Positions 10,245 through 18,733 of a DNA stretch of 64,000 nt are shown piece by piece. Made by a program: the position numbers and the translations under genes. Source of the stretch: Bacteroidia bacterium. GTDB lineage: Bacteria; Bacteroidota; Bacteroidia; NS11-12g; UBA9320. The notes below the pieces were generated by a model. The model did not search any database. It worked only from the letters and a program-made list of their open reading frames with translations, and was not told where the DNA came from. The stretch is from the NCBI GenBank assembly GCA_965216465.1, contig CBDCFW010000005.1, forward strand, positions 128,001 through 192,000, written 5' to 3'. Every line of letters begins with the position of its first letter. The first letter of the stretch is position 1.

Positions 10245-11200
10245 TAAAACTGCAAGAATTATTGAATGATTTTAAGCCGTCGTTAGAGCGAATTACTAGC
10301 TTTTCTGGTGAGCCAAAGGAAGTTTATGACCCCATAAATTACATTTTAGATTTGGGAGGAAAGCGCATTCGTCCAGCTCTGGTTTTGGCATCCTATCGAT
10401 TGTATAATGACACCTATTCTGATGAGGTTTTCAAGCTTGCCGAAGCGGTTGAAATGTTCCATAATTTCACTCTTTTGCACGATGATATAATGGATAATGC
10501 TACTATGCGTAGAGGCAAGGAAACTGCTCACATTAAGTGGAATGAGCCTACGGCAATCTTATCCGGTGATTTACTTCAAATAAAAGTATACGAAAAATTA
10601 GGGCAGATAGGCAATGTTCAAGTAACAGACTTGTTTACTAAAATGGCTATTGAGCTATGTGAAGGTCAGATGAATGACATGTTGTTTGAAACGCGATCGG
10701 ATGTTAGCAATGATCAGTATTTGGGTATGATTAGGCAAAAAACGGCTGTCTTACTGGCTTTTGCGATGCAAGGAGGTGCATTGTTGGGAGGAGCGAATTT
10801 AGAGCAATCTGGAAAGTTATACGACCTAGGCATTCAGTTGGGAATGACATTTCAGCTAATGGACGACTACCTTGACACATTTGGCTCCAGTGCAAAGGTT
10901 GGTAAGCGTATTGGAGGTGACATTCTCGAAAGAAAGAAGACATATTTATGGAATGCGATGTGGTCTACTTTAAGGAGTTCTCAAAAGGAAGAAGTCGATT
11001 CGTGGTATAATATGTCAGAGGAAGAAACAATTGAAAAAGTACGAGCTTTAATGATTGAGGTTGGTGCCGATCAAATCACGCTTCAGCTAGCCCAAAAATA
11101 CACCCAAGATTGTCAGCTGCAGCTAGAAGAGTTGGCTGTAGAAGGTGATAGATCCTATCTTGCGGAGATTGTTGAGTTGCTCGTATCTCGAGAGAGCTAG
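10241..11200 (+). CDS. Polyprenyl (isoprenyl) diphosphate synthase
   Basis: GGKRIRP, HDDIMDNATMRRG (FARM), FQLMDDYLD (SARM). Confidence 0.93.
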   Translation: MIKLQELLNDFKPSLERITSFSGEPKEVYDPINYILDLGGKRIRPALVLASYRLYNDTYSDEVFKLAEAVEMFHNFTLLHDDIMDNATMRRGKETAHIKWNEPTAILSGDLLQIKVYEKLGQIGNVQVTDLFTKMAIELCEGQMNDMLFETRSDVSNDQYLGMIRQKTAVLLAFAMQGGALLGGANLEQSGKLYDLGIQLGMTFQLMDDYLDTFGSSAKVGKRIGGDILERKKTYLWNAMWSTLRSSQKEEVDSWYNMSEEETIEKVRALMIEVGADQITLQLAQKYTQDCQLQLEELAVEGDRSYLAEIVELLVSRES

Positions 11201-11589
11201 AGCTTTCGATACCAATCGGGGTCCATATACCTGACGGCATTTTCTCCGAAAGATACGGTTCTCACTTCATTAATTTGATAGGTTGATTCTTCGCCAAATA
11301 GCGTAGAAAATATTATGGTATGTTCTACTCCAGCCTCATCGGTTTGAATAATTCTAGCTAGGTTTTTATTCTCTTTGTATTCTAAACTGTGGTAACAAGC
11401 GGGACATTGGTAATGCACTTTATCACCTTTGTTTATGGTCAGGTTATCGCTAACCAGAACGGTATAGTCTCCAAGTTTTTCACTCAACAGGAATACACCT
11501 TTATTGGCATTTGAACACGTTCCTGAAAGAACGAGATAACCGCCAAGGTTGAGTTGCGCTTGGCAGTAGGGGCAATTCAATCGTTTCAC
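11197..11589 (-). CDS. Hypothetical protein with two CxxC motifs (putative zinc ribbon)
   Basis: CPYC and CPAC; GTG start; 4-bp convergent overlap with the polyprenyl synthase gene. Confidence 0.7.
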   Translation of the reverse strand: MKRLNCPYCQAQLNLGGYLVLSGTCSNANKGVFLLSEKLGDYTVLVSDNLTINKGDKVHYQCPACYHSLEYKENKNLARIIQTDEAGVEHTIIFSTLFGEESTYQINEVRTVSFGENAVRYMDPDWYRKL

Positions 11590-11665
11590 TTGAGCAATTT
11601 ACATCTTTTTGCATGGATATTCAAGAATTATGCTCATCCTAAGCTTAGAACCATCTCGTAACAAG

Positions 11666-12283
11666 CTACTTGTGAAAAATTCGAGTGCAGGTTTCGCGTA
11701 TATCGTCGTTGCTGTTCTCCCAAGTGAAATGGACTCGCAGTAAATGTTCGTGTAGGATTTTGATGTAGCAACGGAGGTGGAGTGTTTCACCGTTAACTTC
11801 TTTCGTATACATTTCAGGATTATTTGAAAGTTCCATTTGAGCAAACCCTGCTTCTTGGTTACGACCAATGAAGAAATGAGTTAGTGTATCATTTGGAAAA
11901 GAGTCTTTAGTTACAAGATGGGGCATTAATGACAAACCAAACGCAGCTTCATTCAAACCAAAAATGACAACTGGTGCATAGTCTAAATTCTTAACATAAG
12001 CTCTTAAGGTAAGCAACATTGGTTGCGGAAGCTCTTCAAAACCTCTACACCACTCTTCTTCGTTGTAAAATAATCCATATTGACCTTGGTCGATATATTG
12101 TTGGTCTTCAGGCAAGCATCGACTAACACAATATCCATTTATGTCTAGGCCTTCGCAAATGCAGTCACCATTAATCAAGGTAAAACCATCTGGACAAGTT
12201 GAAGTGTCCTCTTGGTCGTTGCATCCAATTACAACAACACAGAACACAATAACCAGCAGCAAAACTTTTAAAATAAATTTCAT
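11666..12283 (-). CDS. Cys-rich lipoprotein, tandem paralog (last of 5 in transcription order)
   Basis: MKFILK...VVIGC lipobox; TCPDG..C.C..GYC..RC; C-terminal LRCYIKILH..LLRVHFTWENSNDDIRETCTRIFHK. Confidence 0.85.
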   Translation of the reverse strand: MKFILKVLLLVIVFCVVVIGCNDQEDTSTCPDGFTLINGDCICEGLDINGYCVSRCLPEDQQYIDQGQYGLFYNEEEWCRGFEELPQPMLLTLRAYVKNLDYAPVVIFGLNEAAFGLSLMPHLVTKDSFPNDTLTHFFIGRNQEAGFAQMELSNNPEMYTKEVNGETLHLRCYIKILHEHLLRVHFTWENSNDDIRETCTRIFHK

Positions 12284-12333
12284 AACGACGAGCAAGGTGC
12301 GTGAATCGATTCATTCATTTTGTAGTAGTATTT

Positions 12334-12951
12334 CTACTTATGAAAAATTCGGGTGCAGGTTTCACGAATTTCGTCGTTGCTGTTTTCCCATGTGAAGTGG
12401 ACTCGGAGAAGTCGTTCATGTAGTATTTTTATGTAGCATCTGAGATATAAGTTCTCGCCATTAACTAACTTGACAAAACGTCGTGGATCATTGCTAACCT
12501 TCATCTCTACAAAGCCTGCCTCTATTTTATGGCCTGCAAATGCATAGAGAAGGCTATCGGACTGAAAACTATCATTTGTTACCCAGTTAGGTTTCAACGA
12601 TAACCCAAATTCTTCTTCATGTAATCCAAAGTATATTGATGGACCATAGTTTAGAAGTTCTGGATATGCCTCTAGTCTTATCAACATTGGGCTTGGAAGA
12701 CTTTCAAACCCATCACACCATTCTTTTTCATTGAAGTACTGACCAAGCATCCCTTTGGCTGTATATTCTTGGTCTTCAGGCAAGCACCTACTGATGCAAT
12801 AGCCATTAATATTCAATTCTTTGCATGCACAATCATTTTCTTCTAGGGTAAAACCATCAGGACAGGTGTTTGTTTCTAACGGATCTTTGCAGCAAATCAA
12901 CATTGTCCCAATTAGGCAAAATAGGCTTAGTTTTTTTATCCTTAAAATCAT
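12334..12951 (-). CDS. Cys-rich lipoprotein, tandem paralog (4th of 5)
   Basis: MILRIKK...MLICC signal; same Cys pattern and C-terminus as its neighbours. Confidence 0.85.
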   Translation of the reverse strand: MILRIKKLSLFCLIGTMLICCKDPLETNTCPDGFTLEENDCACKELNINGYCISRCLPEDQEYTAKGMLGQYFNEKEWCDGFESLPSPMLIRLEAYPELLNYGPSIYFGLHEEEFGLSLKPNWVTNDSFQSDSLLYAFAGHKIEAGFVEMKVSNDPRRFVKLVNGENLYLRCYIKILHERLLRVHFTWENSNDEIRETCTRIFHK

Positions 12952-12999
12952 TGACGTGCAAGGTGAAGAATCCAATTCACTGGATTTGTAGTAGAATTT

Positions 13000-13617
13000 C
13001 TATTTATGAAAAATTCGAGTACATTTTTCACGTATTTCGTCGTTACTATTTTCCCATGTGAAGTGTATACGGAGAAGGCTATCGTGTAAGATCTTAAGGT
13101 AACATCTCAGATACAAGGTTTCACCGCCTGATTGTTTTGTAAAGAGAGTCGGGTCTCTTCCTTGCTCAACGTTCATAAACCCCAATTTTTCTTTGAATCC
13201 AGAATCCGCATATAATAGAGTATCCCGTTCAAATGAATCTGTGCTAATCCAATTAGGAATCATTGCAAGACCATATTCCTCCTCATATAGTCCAAATCTA
13301 ATAATTGGACCATAGCTGAGTAATGCACGATATGCTTCTAAACGAATAAGCATCGGACATGGAAGACCTTCAAAACCTTTGCACCACTCCGCTTCGTTGT
13401 AGAAAAGCCCCAATTCACCCTTTTCTAGATAATATTCGTCATCCGGCAAACATCTACTGATGCAATACCCATTAATGTCAAGACCTTCACAAATGCAGTC
13501 ATCGTCGATCAAGGAATAACCATCAGGGCAAGTTGAAGTGTCCGCTTGGTCATTGCATCCAATTACAACAACACAGAACACAATAACCAGCAGCAGAGTT
13601 TTTACAATAAATTTCAT
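13000..13617 (-). CDS. Cys-rich lipoprotein, tandem paralog (3rd of 5)
   Basis: MKFIVK...VVIGC lipobox; conserved N- and C-termini; an alternative in-frame ATG lies at 13653. Confidence 0.85.
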   Translation of the reverse strand: MKFIVKTLLLVIVFCVVVIGCNDQADTSTCPDGYSLIDDDCICEGLDINGYCISRCLPDDEYYLEKGELGLFYNEAEWCKGFEGLPCPMLIRLEAYRALLSYGPIIRFGLYEEEYGLAMIPNWISTDSFERDTLLYADSGFKEKLGFMNVEQGRDPTLFTKQSGGETLYLRCYLKILHDSLLRIHFTWENSNDEIREKCTRIFHK

Positions 13618-13668
13618 AACAACGGTGCAAGTTGAGACAAACGAAACTTTCATTTTGTAGTAGAACTT

Positions 13669-14286
13669 CTACTTATGAAAAATTCGAGTACATGTTTCCC
13701 GAATTTCGTCGTTGCTGTTTTCCCAGGTGAAGTGGATGCGGAGGAGTCCTCTATGTAAAATTTTAACGTAGCATCTGAGGTACAGAATTTCACCATTAAG
13801 TTCCTTTGTATACATTCTTGGATCATTGCTTGGTTTTCTTTCCATAAAACCTAACTTCTCCTCTACCCCAGCCCATCTATAAATTAATGTATCAGATGCG
13901 AATGAGTCTTGGGCAAGCCAGTGCGGTCTTAGGTTCAGACCATACTCTTCTTCGTGTGTCCCATAATAGATAGCTGGACCATGATTCAAGTAATTGACAT
14001 AAGCCTCTAAAGTAGTGAGCATCGGTTGAGGTAATGATTCAAATCCAACGCACCAAGTTTCTTCATTATAATATTGGCCATATTGACCTTTCTCTTGAAA
14101 CTTGTTATCATCGGGAAGACTTCTATTGATGCAATATCCGATTATTTCAAGCTCGTTGCATATGCAGTCATCGTCGATCAAGGTATAACCATCAGGGCAA
14201 GTTGAAGTGTCGGTTTGGTCATTGCACCCAACCAAAACAACACCTAAAACAATAAACAGCAGCAAAGTTTTTACAATAAATTTCAT
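13669..14286 (-). CDS. Cys-rich lipoprotein, tandem paralog (2nd of 5)
   Basis: MKFIVK...VLVGC lipobox; conserved termini. Confidence 0.85.
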   Translation of the reverse strand: MKFIVKTLLLFIVLGVVLVGCNDQTDTSTCPDGYTLIDDDCICNELEIIGYCINRSLPDDNKFQEKGQYGQYYNEETWCVGFESLPQPMLTTLEAYVNYLNHGPAIYYGTHEEEYGLNLRPHWLAQDSFASDTLIYRWAGVEEKLGFMERKPSNDPRMYTKELNGEILYLRCYVKILHRGLLRIHFTWENSNDEIRETCTRIFHK

Positions 14287-14336
14287 AACGACGAGCAAGG
14301 TGGATGAATCGATTCATTCATTTTGTAGTAGAACTT

Positions 14337-14942
14337 CTACTTATGAAAAATTCGAGTACACGTTTCCCGAATTTCGTCGTTGCTGTTTTCCCAAGTGAAG
14401 TGGATGCGGAGAAGTCGTTCATGTAGAATCTTGATATAACATCTGAGATATAGCGTTTCGCCATTACTAATCTTAGTATTAAACTGTGGAGTAGATTTTG
14501 GATTTACCTCAACAAAGCCTCCATCGCTTCTAAGACCGCTAAACATACAAAGCAATGTATCACTTGCAAACGAGTCTCGACTAATCCAATATGGCTTTAA
14601 CGGAAGACCATAGGCTCCCTCTTCAACTCCATAAATTACATCTGGAGCATGATTTAAATTGGTAAATTTAGCTTCTAATCGAATAAGCATTGGTCTTGGT
14701 AAAGTTAAAAACTCAGGGCACCATTCTTCTTCGTTGTAAAACAATCCATACTCACCATTATCTATGTAGTTCTGATCTTCTGGTAAGCATCTGCTAACAC
14801 AATAGCCATTGATATTTAATCCTTCACACACACATTCGTTATTTACTAGGCTAAATCCATCTGGGCAAGTCTTGGATTGGGACCTGTCTTGGCAACCAAA
14901 TAAAACCAAGATGCTCAGCAGTAAGAGGCTAAATAATTTCAT
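14337..14942 (-). CDS. Cys-rich lipoprotein, tandem paralog (1st of 5, coupled to the upstream large gene)
   Basis: MKLFS...VLFGC lipobox; ATGA overlap with the stop of 14939..17044. Confidence 0.85.
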   Translation of the reverse strand: MKLFSLLLLSILVLFGCQDRSQSKTCPDGFSLVNNECVCEGLNINGYCVSRCLPEDQNYIDNGEYGLFYNEEEWCPEFLTLPRPMLIRLEAKFTNLNHAPDVIYGVEEGAYGLPLKPYWISRDSFASDTLLCMFSGLRSDGGFVEVNPKSTPQFNTKISNGETLYLRCYIKILHERLLRIHFTWENSNDEIRETCTRIFHK

Positions 14943-17044
14943 GGTTTGTATACTTTAATAGTTTTCTCTTCAAAATTTCTTTTGTATTTTATTGTATACC
15001 ATCCGCTAGCAATTGAAGTTAATTTCACAATTTCTCCTCTTAGATTAGATTCACTAAGGTCATTCTGTACGACACCATTGGATACAACCATGTTTGTCAG
15101 TAAATCAACAATAAAGTACTCAGTTCCTTTTGGTATTTTTTCACTTTCATCATTATTCTCATCCGTAAATTCATCTTGCCCATGATACTCGTTTGGACAC
15201 TTTTTCATTTGATATGTACTTCGCAGGTCCTCGCTTAAAAATTCGTTCAATCCGGTAAAGTTAAAATCATAGATTGAATTATAATGTGGTACATTGACTA
15301 CATTATTTGCCCTAATAAACTCATTCACCTCCCTCAAATCATCCTTTCTTTGCTGATCGTTGTTCACTCCGACTACCCAATTAAAAAATTCTTCAGTGCA
15401 ACACTCCTCAGTTTCCTTATAACCTATATACCCCGCCAACCAGCAATGGCTGTTAATGGATAAGTTGGCTTTGTACTTTGTATGTCCACTAAACCTGTGT
15501 GATGAGAACGAATGAATGACAATTGATGTGGGATCGTTTGGCCAAAGCTCTATCATATAGGTCTTCCCTGACAAGCTGCCTTTGATTAACTCAGAATTTG
15601 ATTGTGCTGATTGTCCAGATCTTCCAACTACGGGCTGCTGGGTGGCAAGTTTCTTCAATGTTTGGACAGTTTGAACAATTGCATTGCTGTCGGTCCAAGC
15701 ATTTTTATCTCCACCAACCATCTTACCTGCCGTCACCCCCAAGTTCAATGCGATATCAAACCAAGCCTGATCCCATGAACTATTGGGTGAAACTTGGTCA
15801 TAGGCCGTAACACTATGTCTTCCTGCATCAAGAATTCCCATTTCTGTTTTGGGCGAAAACTTAGTTAGTATGGCCCAATCCTCTGCATGAGCCTCCCATG
15901 CATAACCCTTACCACATAAGACGCAATTCAGCTTGCCGCCACCACCGCTAAGCAATGATTTATAGCTAGCTCCTACGTGAAGTATCCTGTTCTCGCACAT
16001 GCAATCATCGCGCTGTCCCCGCTCATCTTCACAGAGCATATTATATGCTATATAAGTTGTACTTGGACTCTTTGCCGTTGGGTTAGGATTCATCCATCTA
16101 GCACCCTTGTCACTGCCTACTCGCTTCATATAAGTACCTGCATTATGCTTTCGTGCAGCTCCAACATTCCAGTCTTCGTACCACCATACCTTGTGAACTC
16201 CAGTAGAAGATGGCCAGAAATTCTTATGAAATGTATACCTGTGCTCAAACCAATTGAACGAGTCAATATTGTTTATATCACCCAAATGGGCCTCTTCATA
16301 TATTTGGTGATTTCCCGAAGCAAATGGGAATGTCGCTTTGCACATGCAATTCTTATCAGGTTTTTTCCAAACGTAACGCTCTAAAATGTCACCCAACCAT
16401 CCTATTCCACTCTCCCAATCAAAATCCATTGAATCTGTCACTTCTTCAACTTCATGGTCACCGCCTTCTTCATCTTCCATTCCATTCAATCTTCCCAAAT
16501 CACCATCAAAATAGAATTGTTGAAGGATATACAATTTCTCAAAATGATTCAGTTCTTCCGTCTGAGACAAAAAGGTTAATACATTTCGATCTAAGTCATC
16601 GACGCTGTTACGAGCCAAAGCTTCATACAATTTCATCGGTAAGCCAAACTGACTTTTCACCTCTACCGGAAAAGTTGAGATTCGTTTCATGATTACTAAA
16701 TGCCCTTGCTTCATTTCTTTAGCCAATCGATATTCTTTGTACTTGTCCAATTCAATAATGTTTGATTTTTCCGAAACTGACGAAACTTTAATTCCATTTT
16801 CATCATAAAGTCCTAAATCATGAATTGGCTCAGAAAAATCAATAACCAAATACGATTTTTGGTCACCATGAACAACAAAACTTTGTTTAATTGACACGCC
16901 GTTTCTGTGATTCGGATACGACGGTGGCTCAACTTTCATTTGAGTTGAATCAAAATAACTCTCGGTGGTTTGCGTAAACCCAGAAATGGCTGCTCCTATT
17001 AATAAGAGGCCCAGGGAAATGATCTTAGTAATTGTACCTTTCAT
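14939..17044 (-). CDS. Secreted Cys-rich hypothetical protein with putative T9SS type-A C-terminal sorting domain
   Basis: Sec signal MKGTITKIISLGLLLIGAAISGFTQ; acidic linkers; CMC, CMC, CVLC, CC motifs; tail YFIVDLLTNMV...IASGWYTIKY...TIKVYK resembles the CTD motifs I.D..G..V and L.sG.Y.v.....K. Confidence 0.75.
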   Translation of the reverse strand: MKGTITKIISLGLLLIGAAISGFTQTTESYFDSTQMKVEPPSYPNHRNGVSIKQSFVVHGDQKSYLVIDFSEPIHDLGLYDENGIKVSSVSEKSNIIELDKYKEYRLAKEMKQGHLVIMKRISTFPVEVKSQFGLPMKLYEALARNSVDDLDRNVLTFLSQTEELNHFEKLYILQQFYFDGDLGRLNGMEDEEGGDHEVEEVTDSMDFDWESGIGWLGDILERYVWKKPDKNCMCKATFPFASGNHQIYEEAHLGDINNIDSFNWFEHRYTFHKNFWPSSTGVHKVWWYEDWNVGAARKHNAGTYMKRVGSDKGARWMNPNPTAKSPSTTYIAYNMLCEDERGQRDDCMCENRILHVGASYKSLLSGGGGKLNCVLCGKGYAWEAHAEDWAILTKFSPKTEMGILDAGRHSVTAYDQVSPNSSWDQAWFDIALNLGVTAGKMVGGDKNAWTDSNAIVQTVQTLKKLATQQPVVGRSGQSAQSNSELIKGSLSGKTYMIELWPNDPTSIVIHSFSSHRFSGHTKYKANLSINSHCWLAGYIGYKETEECCTEEFFNWVVGVNNDQQRKDDLREVNEFIRANNVVNVPHYNSIYDFNFTGLNEFLSEDLRSTYQMKKCPNEYHGQDEFTDENNDESEKIPKGTEYFIVDLLTNMVVSNGVVQNDLSESNLRGEIVKLTSIASGWYTIKYKRNFEEKTIKVYKP

Positions 17045-17091
17045 ATAATGTTTCATTAATAAGTACAGCAGCAATAAATTCTGGATACGTT

Positions 17092-17147
17092 AAAACCGAG
17101 CCCAACCTTGTTGGGCTCGGAGGCCAAGTTTTCTTAAAACCGGACCT
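17092..17147 (-). promoter_or_regulatory. Structured 5' leader: imperfect hairpin followed by a terminator-like hairpin + TTTT
   Basis: Minus strand aggtccggtttt-aag-aaaacttggcct, then ccgagcccaac-aag-gttgggctcgg-tttt (perfect 11-bp stem, 17096-17120), ~50 nt before the ATG. Confidence 0.6.
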
Positions 17148-17255
17148 TTCATTAACCCCCACTTATTAGACGGAGAATTATTTTCAGGTCACTTAAAAAA
17201 AGTACTGAAATCGTTATGTAATCGCTAAGTGATTGATTTTCTTTGCATTAATTTT

Positions 17256-18101
17256 TTGAAGAATTTAAAAATATATCGCTCTTCTTCGAATCAGGTTCTC
17301 GAAAATTTAGCTTTTGAAGAGTACTTGGTTGCAAATTCAAATGAAGATGTATTGCTCTTTTACATTAACCAAGATGCCGTTGTAATTGGCAAACATCAAA
17401 ATCCATGGAAAGAGGTTAATCTCGAAAGCATTCAAAAAAACAACATAACCCTCGCACGAAGACTCAGCGGTGGTGGAACCGTATACCACGACCTCGGTAA
17501 CATCAATTTTTCATTTATTCGAAATAAGAATAAAGACTTCGTGAACTTTAAAGAACATATCGCTCCAATAAGTCAAGCATTGCAATACTTAGGAATCGCC
17601 AACCATATTACCGAGCGCAACGATATCTTTATTAACGACCACAAAGTTTCAGGAAATGCTGAACACGTGAACAATTCTGCCAAGCGAATTATTCATCATG
17701 GCACATTGCTTTATGACGCCAATATTGGTTCGCTGGGTACCAGCATTAAACCTAAAGACTTGCAGATTACTACGCACGCAGTTGATTCTGTTCGCAGCCC
17801 GGTTATGAACATGCGCTCTATTAAAGATCATGGCGACACTAATTCTTTTCTTGATCTGTTGATCTTTGAAATTTCCAAATTGGTTCAATCAGTTGGAGTA
17901 GAATCTGTTTCACCTATCAATTTTGAAGAGGTAAAAGAATTGGTCTCCAACAAATATTCTACCTGGGAGTGGACTTTCGGCCATACCCCTCAATTTACTT
18001 ATACCAACCAATCTGCGGTTTCAAAAATTAGAAAAGGCCACGTAATTGAATCAAGCCTTCCTGAACTTGTTGGACTGCGATGCGATAAAATTATCCTATG
18101 A
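17256..18101 (+). CDS. lplA: Lipoate-protein ligase A
   Basis: NLAFEEYL, VIGKHQNPWKEVN, RRLSGGGTVYHDLGN, RND, KVSGNA, HHGTLL; TTG start inferred. Confidence 0.9.
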   Translation: MKNLKIYRSSSNQVLENLAFEEYLVANSNEDVLLFYINQDAVVIGKHQNPWKEVNLESIQKNNITLARRLSGGGTVYHDLGNINFSFIRNKNKDFVNFKEHIAPISQALQYLGIANHITERNDIFINDHKVSGNAEHVNNSAKRIIHHGTLLYDANIGSLGTSIKPKDLQITTHAVDSVRSPVMNMRSIKDHGDTNSFLDLLIFEISKLVQSVGVESVSPINFEEVKELVSNKYSTWEWTFGHTPQFTYTNQSAVSKIRKGHVIESSLPELVGLRCDKIIL

Positions 18102-18733
18102 CCAAAAAAGAACGAGCAAATAGCATTCTACAGATTCTGGATCAAGAATTTCCAGAAGTTCCTATTCCATTAGATCATAAAGACCCTTATACCCTATTGA
18201 TAGCCGTTCTGTTATCCGCACAATGCACTGATGAACGCGTTAATAAAATTACACCTTCACTCTTCGAAAAGGCCGACAATCCTTTTGATATGATTAAAAT
18301 GAGTGTGGAGGAAATTAAGGAAATTATCAGACCCTGCGGTTTGTCTCCTATGAAAAGTAAAGGCATTCATGGCCTTAGCTCTATACTGGTTGAAAAGTAC
18401 AACGGTGAGGTTCCGCAAACTTTTGAAGGACTTGAAGCTTTACCCGCGGTGGGTCACAAAACAGCCAGTGTTGTAATGAGTCAAGCATTTGAGATTCCTG
18501 CTTTTCCTGTCGACACGCACATTCACAGGCTAGCGTATCGGTGGAAGCTCAGTACAGGTAAAAATGTTGAAAAGACTGAAAAGGACCTTAAGGCATGTAT
18601 TCCGAAAGATCGTTGGAATAAAGCACATCTGCAGATTATCTACTTTGGTAGAAAGTATTGCCCGGCACGTGGACACGATCCTAAGGCCTGTCCGATTTGT
18701 TCTAAGTTCGGGAGGCAATCATTATTTAAATAA
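18098..18733 (+). CDS. nth: Endonuclease III
   Basis: LLIAVLLSAQCTD, HhH LPAVGHKTA, VDTH, C-terminal Cys cluster. Confidence 0.93.
   Translation: MTKKERANSILQILDQEFPEVPIPLDHKDPYTLLIAVLLSAQCTDERVNKITPSLFEKADNPFDMIKMSVEEIKEIIRPCGLSPMKSKGIHGLSSILVEKYNGEVPQTFEGLEALPAVGHKTASVVMSQAFEIPAFPVDTHIHRLAYRWKLSTGKNVEKTEKDLKACIPKDRWNKAHLQIIYFGRKYCPARGHDPKACPICSKFGRQSLFK

Follow-up and report, generated by a model that had tools for sequence, protein, structure and literature searches.

The 64,000-nucleotide stretch of DNA analysed here (the window; contig CBDCFW010000005.1 of assembly GCA_965216465.1, a genome labelled Bacteroidia bacterium) carries, on its minus strand at positions 11666-17074, a cassette of six consecutive genes: one large gene for a secreted protein, followed by five genes for lipoproteins (lp1 to lp5). 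We report that the secreted protein and the lipoprotein form a conserved module of probable type IX secretion system (T9SS) cargo and lipoprotein partner which is apparently undescribed, and for which we infer a function from its arrangement and sequence. The six genes and the spacers between them are as follows, with protein lengths in amino acids (aa).

14939-17074, minus strand: large gene, 711 aa from a TTG at 17074, more likely 701 aa from an ATG at 17044
14337-14942, minus strand: lp1, lipoprotein precursor of 201 aa, lipobox LFGC, its start overlapping the stop of the large gene
13669-14298, minus strand: lp2, lipoprotein paralog, lipobox LVGC, 54% identity to lp1
13000-13653, minus strand: lp3, lipoprotein paralog, lipobox VIGC, 58% identity to lp1
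12334-12975, minus strand: lp4, lipoprotein paralog, lipobox LICC, 58% identity to lp1
11666-12295, minus strand: lp5, lipoprotein paralog, lipobox VIGC, 60% identity to lp1
12296-12333, 12976-12999, 13654-13668 and 14299-14336, minus strand: array spacers, whose sequence is repeated between units in a DNA alignment

The TGA stop of the large gene and the ATG start of lp1 share the four bases ATGA, as read directly from the DNA, and the lipoprotein genes, of 201-217 codons each, are separated from their neighbours by 15-38 bases. The ATG at 17044 is the start used in the sole public cluster of the large protein, P0001 (701 aa), and is also where the original prediction, made from the letters of this DNA alone, had placed the end of the unit. 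A search of the same genome found no other copies of the large gene or of the lipoprotein gene. The stretch is also found in three sequencing runs of one study, possibly those of the source samples; their contigs do not differ from the window and exhibit no joints or variants, and no RNA run is listed as containing it.

Conservation of the pair

The close relatives of the cassette were surveyed in 66 genomes of the same taxonomic family and in metagenome contigs. A close form of the large gene was found in four genomes, designated G031 (four copies), G025, G027 and G003, and in each of the 15 testable loci the large gene has one or more lipoprotein genes as its immediate downstream neighbours. 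These comprise the window, the four loci of G031, those of G025 and G027, one further contig of a metagenome-assembled genome (MAG), G003, and six metagenome contigs, some of which may share populations with the MAGs; a seventh metagenome contig stops short of the downstream position and was excluded. The named records of these genomes are MAGs and bear the labels Bacteroidia, Sphingobacteriales, Flavobacteriales, Bacteroidetes or Chitinophagaceae. Twelve of the loci carry a single lipoprotein copy, G027 carries two, G025 three and the window five, which makes the window array the largest lipoprotein array seen. The second copy of G027 (G027:C1:1752712-1753353; L019:4386-5027) looks interrupted, with an open reading frame (ORF) of 128 aa (cluster P0185) and a C-terminal part that matches separately.

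The pairing also reaches distant superfamily members, in which the large protein has 15-23% identity to that of the window. A lipoprotein gene, in most cases overlapping the large gene, follows immediately downstream in seven of nine such loci (G025:C13, G444, G046:C101, two in G031, G061 and G058), and its product of 179-200 aa possesses the same lipobox and the same Cys module, which resembles an epidermal growth factor (EGF) domain. That the pair is kept together across large proteins of such low identity is the mark of a functional module. Lipoprotein genes also occur with no large gene nearby, one in G031 and two on a 7.9-kb contig of G046. Furthermore, the polyprenyl synthetase and lipoate ligase genes abut one another in seven genomes of the same genus, and it is between these two genes that a zinc-ribbon gene and the 5.4-kb cassette are inserted in the window; in G031, G025 and G027 the cassette lies at other genomic positions. 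The cassette is hence accessory and not syntenic between genomes. Since the pair stays joined despite extreme divergence, while copy number shifts, lone lipoprotein copies occur and the cassette relocates, the comparisons point to the large protein and the lipoprotein being physical partners, with the partnership itself under selection.

The 2.4-Mb MAG G031 has six superfamily modules on its contig C1, each with its own lipoprotein, at about 389, 398.5, 944, 953, 1419 and 1424 kb (L017, L139, L021, L024, L023 and L137), the members of two module pairs being within 5-10 kb of each other. Two of these modules carry a third small secreted gene after the lipoprotein gene (L023:4439-4849 and L024:4530-4937), the 135-136 aa product of which has no homolog in the genome of the window. 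A further third gene, encoding a secreted protein of 155-156 aa, follows the distant modules of G031 and G061 (L137:5485-5952 and L138:3644-4114).

The large secreted protein

The architecture predicted for the large protein comprises five parts, numbered by residue from the TTG start.

16967-17044, minus strand: predicted Sec signal peptide, MKGTITKIISLGLLLIGAAISGFTQT, with a basic N-region, a hydrophobic core and small residues ahead of Q-T, as read from the sequence
16655-16912, minus strand: N-terminal beta-sandwich resembling immunoglobulin (Ig) or fibronectin type III domains, residues about 55-140
16373-16654, minus strand: helical, acidic linker, residues 141-234, with the superfamily-invariant Q185 and the near-invariant E179; its helices are taken from a low-confidence model
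15155-16372, minus strand: Cys-rich core domain that defines the superfamily, residues 235-640, with profile matches centred on about 290-570
14942-15142, minus strand: C-terminal beta-sandwich, likely a divergent T9SS type A sorting domain, residues 645-711, with an AlphaFold2 (AF2) predicted local distance difference test (pLDDT) score of 56-78

The signal-peptide-like pattern at the N-terminus is shared by 10 of 10 aligned relatives, and the alignment of relatives contains ten conserved Cys. Conserved positions of the core are C243, C245, C348, C358, C360, Y371, D399, N431, N513, S522, G530, S542, C558, C559 and C626; across the whole superfamily the conserved residues are mostly Cys, Gly, Asn, Ser, Tyr and Trp, joined by Q185, E179 and D399. 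Sliding identity in five pairs of proteins revealed the core (residues 241-600) to be the most conserved portion and the N-terminal sandwich and the last 110 residues the least, with no sharp switch point between them. The AF2 model of the large protein rests on an alignment of ten sequences and is usable for the N-terminal Ig-like and the C-terminal sandwiches only. Fold searches with this model returned Ig-like sandwiches and a weak row for the RgpB sorting domain, and are uninformative on the core.

A word-indexed search of 5.8 billion proteins yielded four clusters of the large protein besides P0001, and a full HMMER pass with a profile of ten close relatives raised this to 177 clusters at E<=1e-3, 100 of them at E<=1e-10 (clustered at 50% identity, most of 600-740 aa). 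A profile of the core only, run over 401 Bacteroidota genomes, matched in four. Neither the large protein nor the lipoproteins of the window matched a Pfam or NCBIfam family at cut-off, PDB sequence searches with profiles of the large protein and of the lipoprotein produced nothing meaningful, and an ESM Atlas search with the large protein gave no usable match. Judged by sequence comparison, both proteins belong to undescribed families outside Pfam, NCBIfam and the PDB sequences, and both of these families are rare. Likewise, no description of this secreted-protein/lipoprotein pair was found in the literature, as judged by titles and the first parts of abstracts.

The lipoprotein array

The five lipoproteins, 54-60% identical to lp1, all possess the lipobox Cys (five of five copies), have a mature length of exactly 185 aa each, and share an invariant EGF-like motif, T-C-P-D-G...C-x-C...I-x-G-Y-C. 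Residues 166-201 are nearly all invariant across the paralogs, and majority identity per ten residues falls to 0.54-0.68 over residues 88-157 and reaches 0.96-1.0 over residues 178-201. The Cys residues are four in the EGF-like module and a C-terminal pair, which, like the ten conserved Cys of the large protein, are features of extracytoplasmic proteins, and the lipobox Cys is near-invariant over 42 members of the lipoprotein family. A word-indexed profile search of the 5.8 billion proteins recovered 31 lipoprotein clusters, all of them unnamed or "hypothetical", and the ESM Atlas, queried with lp1, offered as a lead only unnamed Bacteroidota proteins of 170-180 aa (scores 0.76-0.78), some with EGF Pfam labels.

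The original prediction had recognised an operon-like unit, a Sec-signal protein of some 700 aa belonging to no known family, and five tandem lipoproteins with a shared Cys-rich N-terminus, a near-invariant C-terminus and a divergent centre. All of this holds: the first two genes overlap by ATGA and the lipoprotein gene follows the large gene at 15 of 15 close and seven of nine distant loci, the large protein (701-711 aa) matches nothing in Pfam, NCBIfam or the PDB sequences, and the alignment of the five paralogs agrees with the description given. The array had also been called diversifying, which the data do not show. Synonymous divergence (dS, Nei-Gojobori) over the mature-coding parts is saturated, being above 1.6 or not computable in all ten pairs; nonsynonymous divergence (dN) amounts to 0.42-0.52 for the middle, 0.07-0.41 for the EGF-like module and 0.03-0.15 for the C-terminus, and the ratio of the two, omega, is 0.1-0.26 for those pairs in which it can be computed. 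The five copies are thus old, and all have been kept intact under constraint.

The window copies are 23-29% identical to copies in other genomes and closest among themselves, so the array grew in place. Recent gene conversion was considered as the force keeping the array alike and was rejected, as the mature-coding parts are saturated and only the spacer and signal-peptide region (the first ~50 nt) of lp2, lp3 and lp5 is young, with a dS of 0.07-0.34 against the saturated remainder. This short region suggests local gene conversion, or a signal or constraint at the nucleotide level.

Probable export by the type IX secretion system

The T9SS core genes searched for, PorU and PorV, are both present in the same genome above their cut-offs (NF033707, 1210 bits, and NF033710, 478 bits) and are adjacent on contig 4. 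The genome also contains 131 matches to the sorting-domain family PF18962, 126 of them over cut-off. Among relatives of the large protein, PF18962 is matched at the C-terminus in 20 of 70 superfamily representatives at E<=1e-3, with 7 of the 70 reaching cut-off; in a set of 49 members, 31 match PF18962 at E<=1 and 41 match TIGR04183 at E<=0.1. When the superfamily profile was run against the PDB, it retrieved solved T9SS sorting domains, first 8glk_D (E 4e-6) and then the domains of mirolase and gingipain R2. Its last ~100 positions find matching protein C-termini in 338 of 401 genomes belonging to the class, a tally which takes in the unpublished genomes G157 and G241.

When the profile of the close family is aligned with P0024 and P0031, its C-terminal part runs onto their sorting-domain stretch, and hhalign placed 12 close tails against 16 sorting domains of the same genome in register over 51 columns, with an E of 0.003 and a probability of 10%. 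Foldseek, run on the AF2 C-terminal sandwich, returned the RgpB C-terminal domain at rank 2 (E 0.035). Since the relatives carry a type A sorting domain, homology makes it likely that the large protein is exported by the T9SS.

Outside the window, at G000:C6:791930-792457 on the plus strand, lies the genome's only other small lipoprotein with three or more N-terminal Cys, and it stands tail to tail with an ORF of 860 aa that bears a PF18962 match at C6:792474-792683.

Flanking and regulatory sequence

The genes that flank the cassette are housekeeping genes, encoding an RNB-domain ribonuclease, a polyprenyl synthetase, a lipoate ligase, an HhH-GPD glycosylase, a pseudouridine synthase and an aldehyde dehydrogenase, and no mobility gene is present in the window ORF list, just as had been noted before. 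Between the array and the polyprenyl synthetase gene, at 11197-11589 on the minus strand, is the zinc-ribbon gene mentioned above, which encodes a protein of 130 aa with two CxxC pairs and weak zinc-ribbon matches; at this spot related genomes show either no gap or one that varies between 0.4 and 1 kb. An Rfam scan of 10500-18500 gave a single row at chance level, and a scan for promoters and terminators gave fewer sites than shuffled sequence did. A hairpin at 17096-17120 on the minus strand consists of a 9-bp GC-rich stem (ccgagccca / tgggctcgg) with a 7-nt loop, followed by TTTTA at 17091-17095. It is absent from the terminator-scan list because its T run has too few T. It sits some 20-50 nt upstream of the possible starts of the large gene, on the same strand, with no gene upstream there, and may represent a leader or attenuator, or what is left of a terminator.

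Interpretation of the cassette

We propose, with a probability of roughly 0.4, that the module is a two-gene cassette of a secreted effector and a cognate neutralising lipoprotein (an inhibitor or an immunity protein), the gene for which has been amplified to five copies in the window. The large protein would reach the periplasm via Sec and exit via the T9SS using its C-terminal beta-sandwich. The lipoprotein, pictured as an EGF-like disulfide module joined to a lipocalin-like eight-stranded barrel and anchored in the outer membrane, would bind the large protein and thereby block an activity harmful to the producer's own envelope. Specificity would be set by the barrel's variable half (residues about 90-160), with the invariant last three strands and the EGF module serving as a common scaffold or docking face, and the extra paralogs would cover variant large proteins made by neighbouring cells. 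That the five paralogs have all their frames open and are identical in mature length counts in favour of this proposal. If the lipoprotein does neutralise its neighbour, the five-copy array would be a natural series for studying how specificity diverges on a lipocalin-like scaffold.

A number of observations weigh against an effector with a neutralising partner. There is no obvious catalytic set of residues among the positions conserved in the superfamily, none of the toxin, peptidase or other enzyme families in Pfam and NCBIfam was matched in 49-70 superfamily members, and the large protein does not have the classical polymorphic-toxin layout. Each of the five copies has its nearest kin within the array, and they were thus not gathered from other strains. 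At two of the nine distant loci, in G339 and G453, no such lipoprotein lies downstream; a small zinc-finger ORF follows the large-gene homolog in G453. The structural models are weak: that of the large protein has a mean pLDDT of 39.8, with the core below 50, and that of lp1 (m66db149a0d96), an antiparallel, eight-stranded lipocalin-like barrel of about 140 residues, has a mean pLDDT of 62.6, and its best Foldseek rows are lipocalins at background level (E 0.02-0.1). The lipocalin-like barrel is accordingly a low-confidence lead from modelling and not a finding. The T9SS export put forward as putative in the original prediction is plausible through the homology of the relatives, but the tail of the window protein has no direct match of its own: it matches neither PF18962 nor TIGR04183 and is absent from the 131 PF18962 matches of its genome, and against a profile of 141 sorting domains of that genome it scores an E of 0.32, rank 166 of 2907 ORF tails.

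A narrower form of the effector proposal would make the large protein a T9SS-delivered interbacterial toxin family, with self-protection by outer-membrane EGF-lipocalin lipoproteins and with poly-immunity arrays that arise by in-situ duplication; this we consider possible, and on the doubtful side. A toxin/poly-immunity system had been suggested from the outset, and the coupled pair, the varying copy number, the lone lipoprotein genes and the accessory location agree with it. The failure to find a toxin or enzyme domain in 49-70 members, a layout unlike that of polymorphic toxins and the origin of the extra copies as in-situ duplicates do not. Among the findings named in advance as speaking against it was the occurrence of lipoprotein homologs without the large gene and at fixed copy number: such genes do occur, but the copy number varies (1, 2, 3 or 5). 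Another was a match of the large protein to a known non-toxic enzyme or adhesin family, and no such match was found in Pfam, NCBIfam or the PDB sequences. If the toxin interpretation were true, the family would be a T9SS counterpart of the effector/immunity loci of type VI secretion systems (T6SS), with at least 177 protein clusters in uncultured Bacteroidota, and T9SS-mediated competition in marine Bacteroidota would be opened to direct testing.

Alternative explanations

The conserved pairing and the gene coupling would fit equally well if the lipoproteins were structural partners which anchor, present or help to fold the secreted protein at the cell surface, the paralogs then being interchangeable specificities, as in the second option of the original prediction. 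The invariant EGF module and C-terminal strands would form a docking face and the variable half of the barrel an outward face, and such a role sits easily with a large protein in which no enzyme or toxin signature was found. Cargo with a type A sorting domain is known to become anchored by way of its own processing, with no need for a dedicated lipoprotein, which counts against this explanation, and lipoprotein genes without a large gene fit protection better than a subunit role. The residues that follow the lipid Cys bear on the matter in both directions. Surface export in Bacteroidota is signalled by K-(D/E)2 or Q-A-(D/E)2 just past the +1 Cys (PMC5080379). In the relatives the sequence is C-K-D-D or C-K-E-E, K standing at +2 where the optimum is +3, and the C-K-D-D in particular resembles the K-(D/E)2 signal; the window copies, which read C-Q-D-R, C-N-D-Q (three copies) and C-K-D-P, match it in part only. 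On balance, a structural partnership seems to us somewhat unlikely.

Less likely again is a role in nutrient or ligand capture, in which binding or processing of an external substrate would fall to the secreted protein and binding of small products or cofactors to the lipoproteins, each paralog with a different ligand. It draws on the barrel, whose best (weak) fold matches are ligand-binding lipocalins, including Bacteroides lipocalin-family proteins, and on the distant locus of G339 (L063, G339:C38, 1383-4751, minus strand), in which a TonB-dependent receptor (CarboxypepD_reg, Plug) and a DUF4249 lipoprotein come after the large-gene homolog. The lipocalin matches are at background level, however, and no transporter gene stands beside the cassette in the window or in any of the 15 close loci. 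Furthermore, the stop/start overlap and the one-to-one pairing across very divergent members suggest co-evolving partners.

That the large protein is a pore-forming toxin of the BSAP kind, with lipoproteins that are toxin-resistant versions of its surface receptor, is very improbable: BSAP toxins of Bacteroidales each target a single outer-membrane protein, lipoprotein or lipopolysaccharide (LPS) glycan (PMC12853789), the low-confidence core model has long beta-strands flanked by helix pairs, and the conserved residues are structural and not catalytic, but MACPF (PF01823) is unmatched at E<=1 in 49 superfamily members, BSAPs are described in that source as lipoproteins themselves and not as T9SS cargo, and the lipoprotein family occurs almost only beside the large gene, whereas a receptor would be expected in toxin-free genomes too.

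Comparison with known systems

Orphan or poly-immunity arrays are a feature of polymorphic toxin systems and of T6SS effector-immunity pairs with periplasmic lipoprotein immunity, and the TANFOR toxins of Bacteroidetes are reportedly a further system for comparison among toxin/immunity loci. The cassette resembles such loci in having a coupled partner gene immediately downstream, tandem paralogs, partner genes without an effector and an accessory, non-syntenic location. It differs from them in that no toxin family was matched in Pfam, NCBIfam or the PDB sequences, and where those proteins join a conserved delivery region to an exchangeable toxin tip at the C-terminus, the divergence here is even, with the core the most conserved. 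Moreover, no orphan toxin fragments were seen, and the copies in the array are old in-situ duplicates.

With the BSAPs (PMC12853789), the cassette has in common a Bacteroidota-specific secreted protein and a possible specificity resting on one outer-membrane protein or lipoprotein of the same species; BSAPs carry a MACPF domain and are lipoproteins, and the large protein of the window is neither a MACPF protein nor a lipoprotein. By its gene order, its cargo, the missing MACPF match and its layout, the cassette is a member of none of the potempin, MACPF/BSAP and polymorphic-toxin families.

Among cases known from experiment, the nearest analogy is offered by the KLIKK-peptidase/potempin system of Tannerella forsythia, in which outer-membrane lipoproteins, the potempins, block co-transcribed T9SS peptidases and protect the surface of the producer (PMC9890683). 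The differences between the two are considerable. A potempin gene is found upstream of its peptidase gene, but in every paired locus of the present module the lipoprotein gene comes downstream; potempins are proteins of 98-132 residues with no EGF-like module, as against 185 mature residues with such a module. KLIKK cargo consists of recognisable peptidases that end in KLIKK, whereas the window cargo matches no peptidase family and ends in KVYKP. A tandem array of one potempin is not mentioned in the abstract of PMC9890683, and no sequence similarity between the potempin system and the cassette was found.

The likenesses lie in the arrangement. In both systems a T9SS-secreted protein (likely so in the window) is encoded beside a small outer-membrane lipoprotein; the binding and blocking known for the potempins (PMC9890683) are predicted here. 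Some potempins are eight-stranded up-and-down beta-barrels, the class tentatively predicted for the lipoprotein of the window, and one genome can carry several pairs, as G031 does with its six modules. Should the lipoprotein of the cassette indeed neutralise its neighbour, the potempin precedent, which comes from an oral pathogen, would widen to a general means by which Bacteroidota handle dangerous T9SS cargo.

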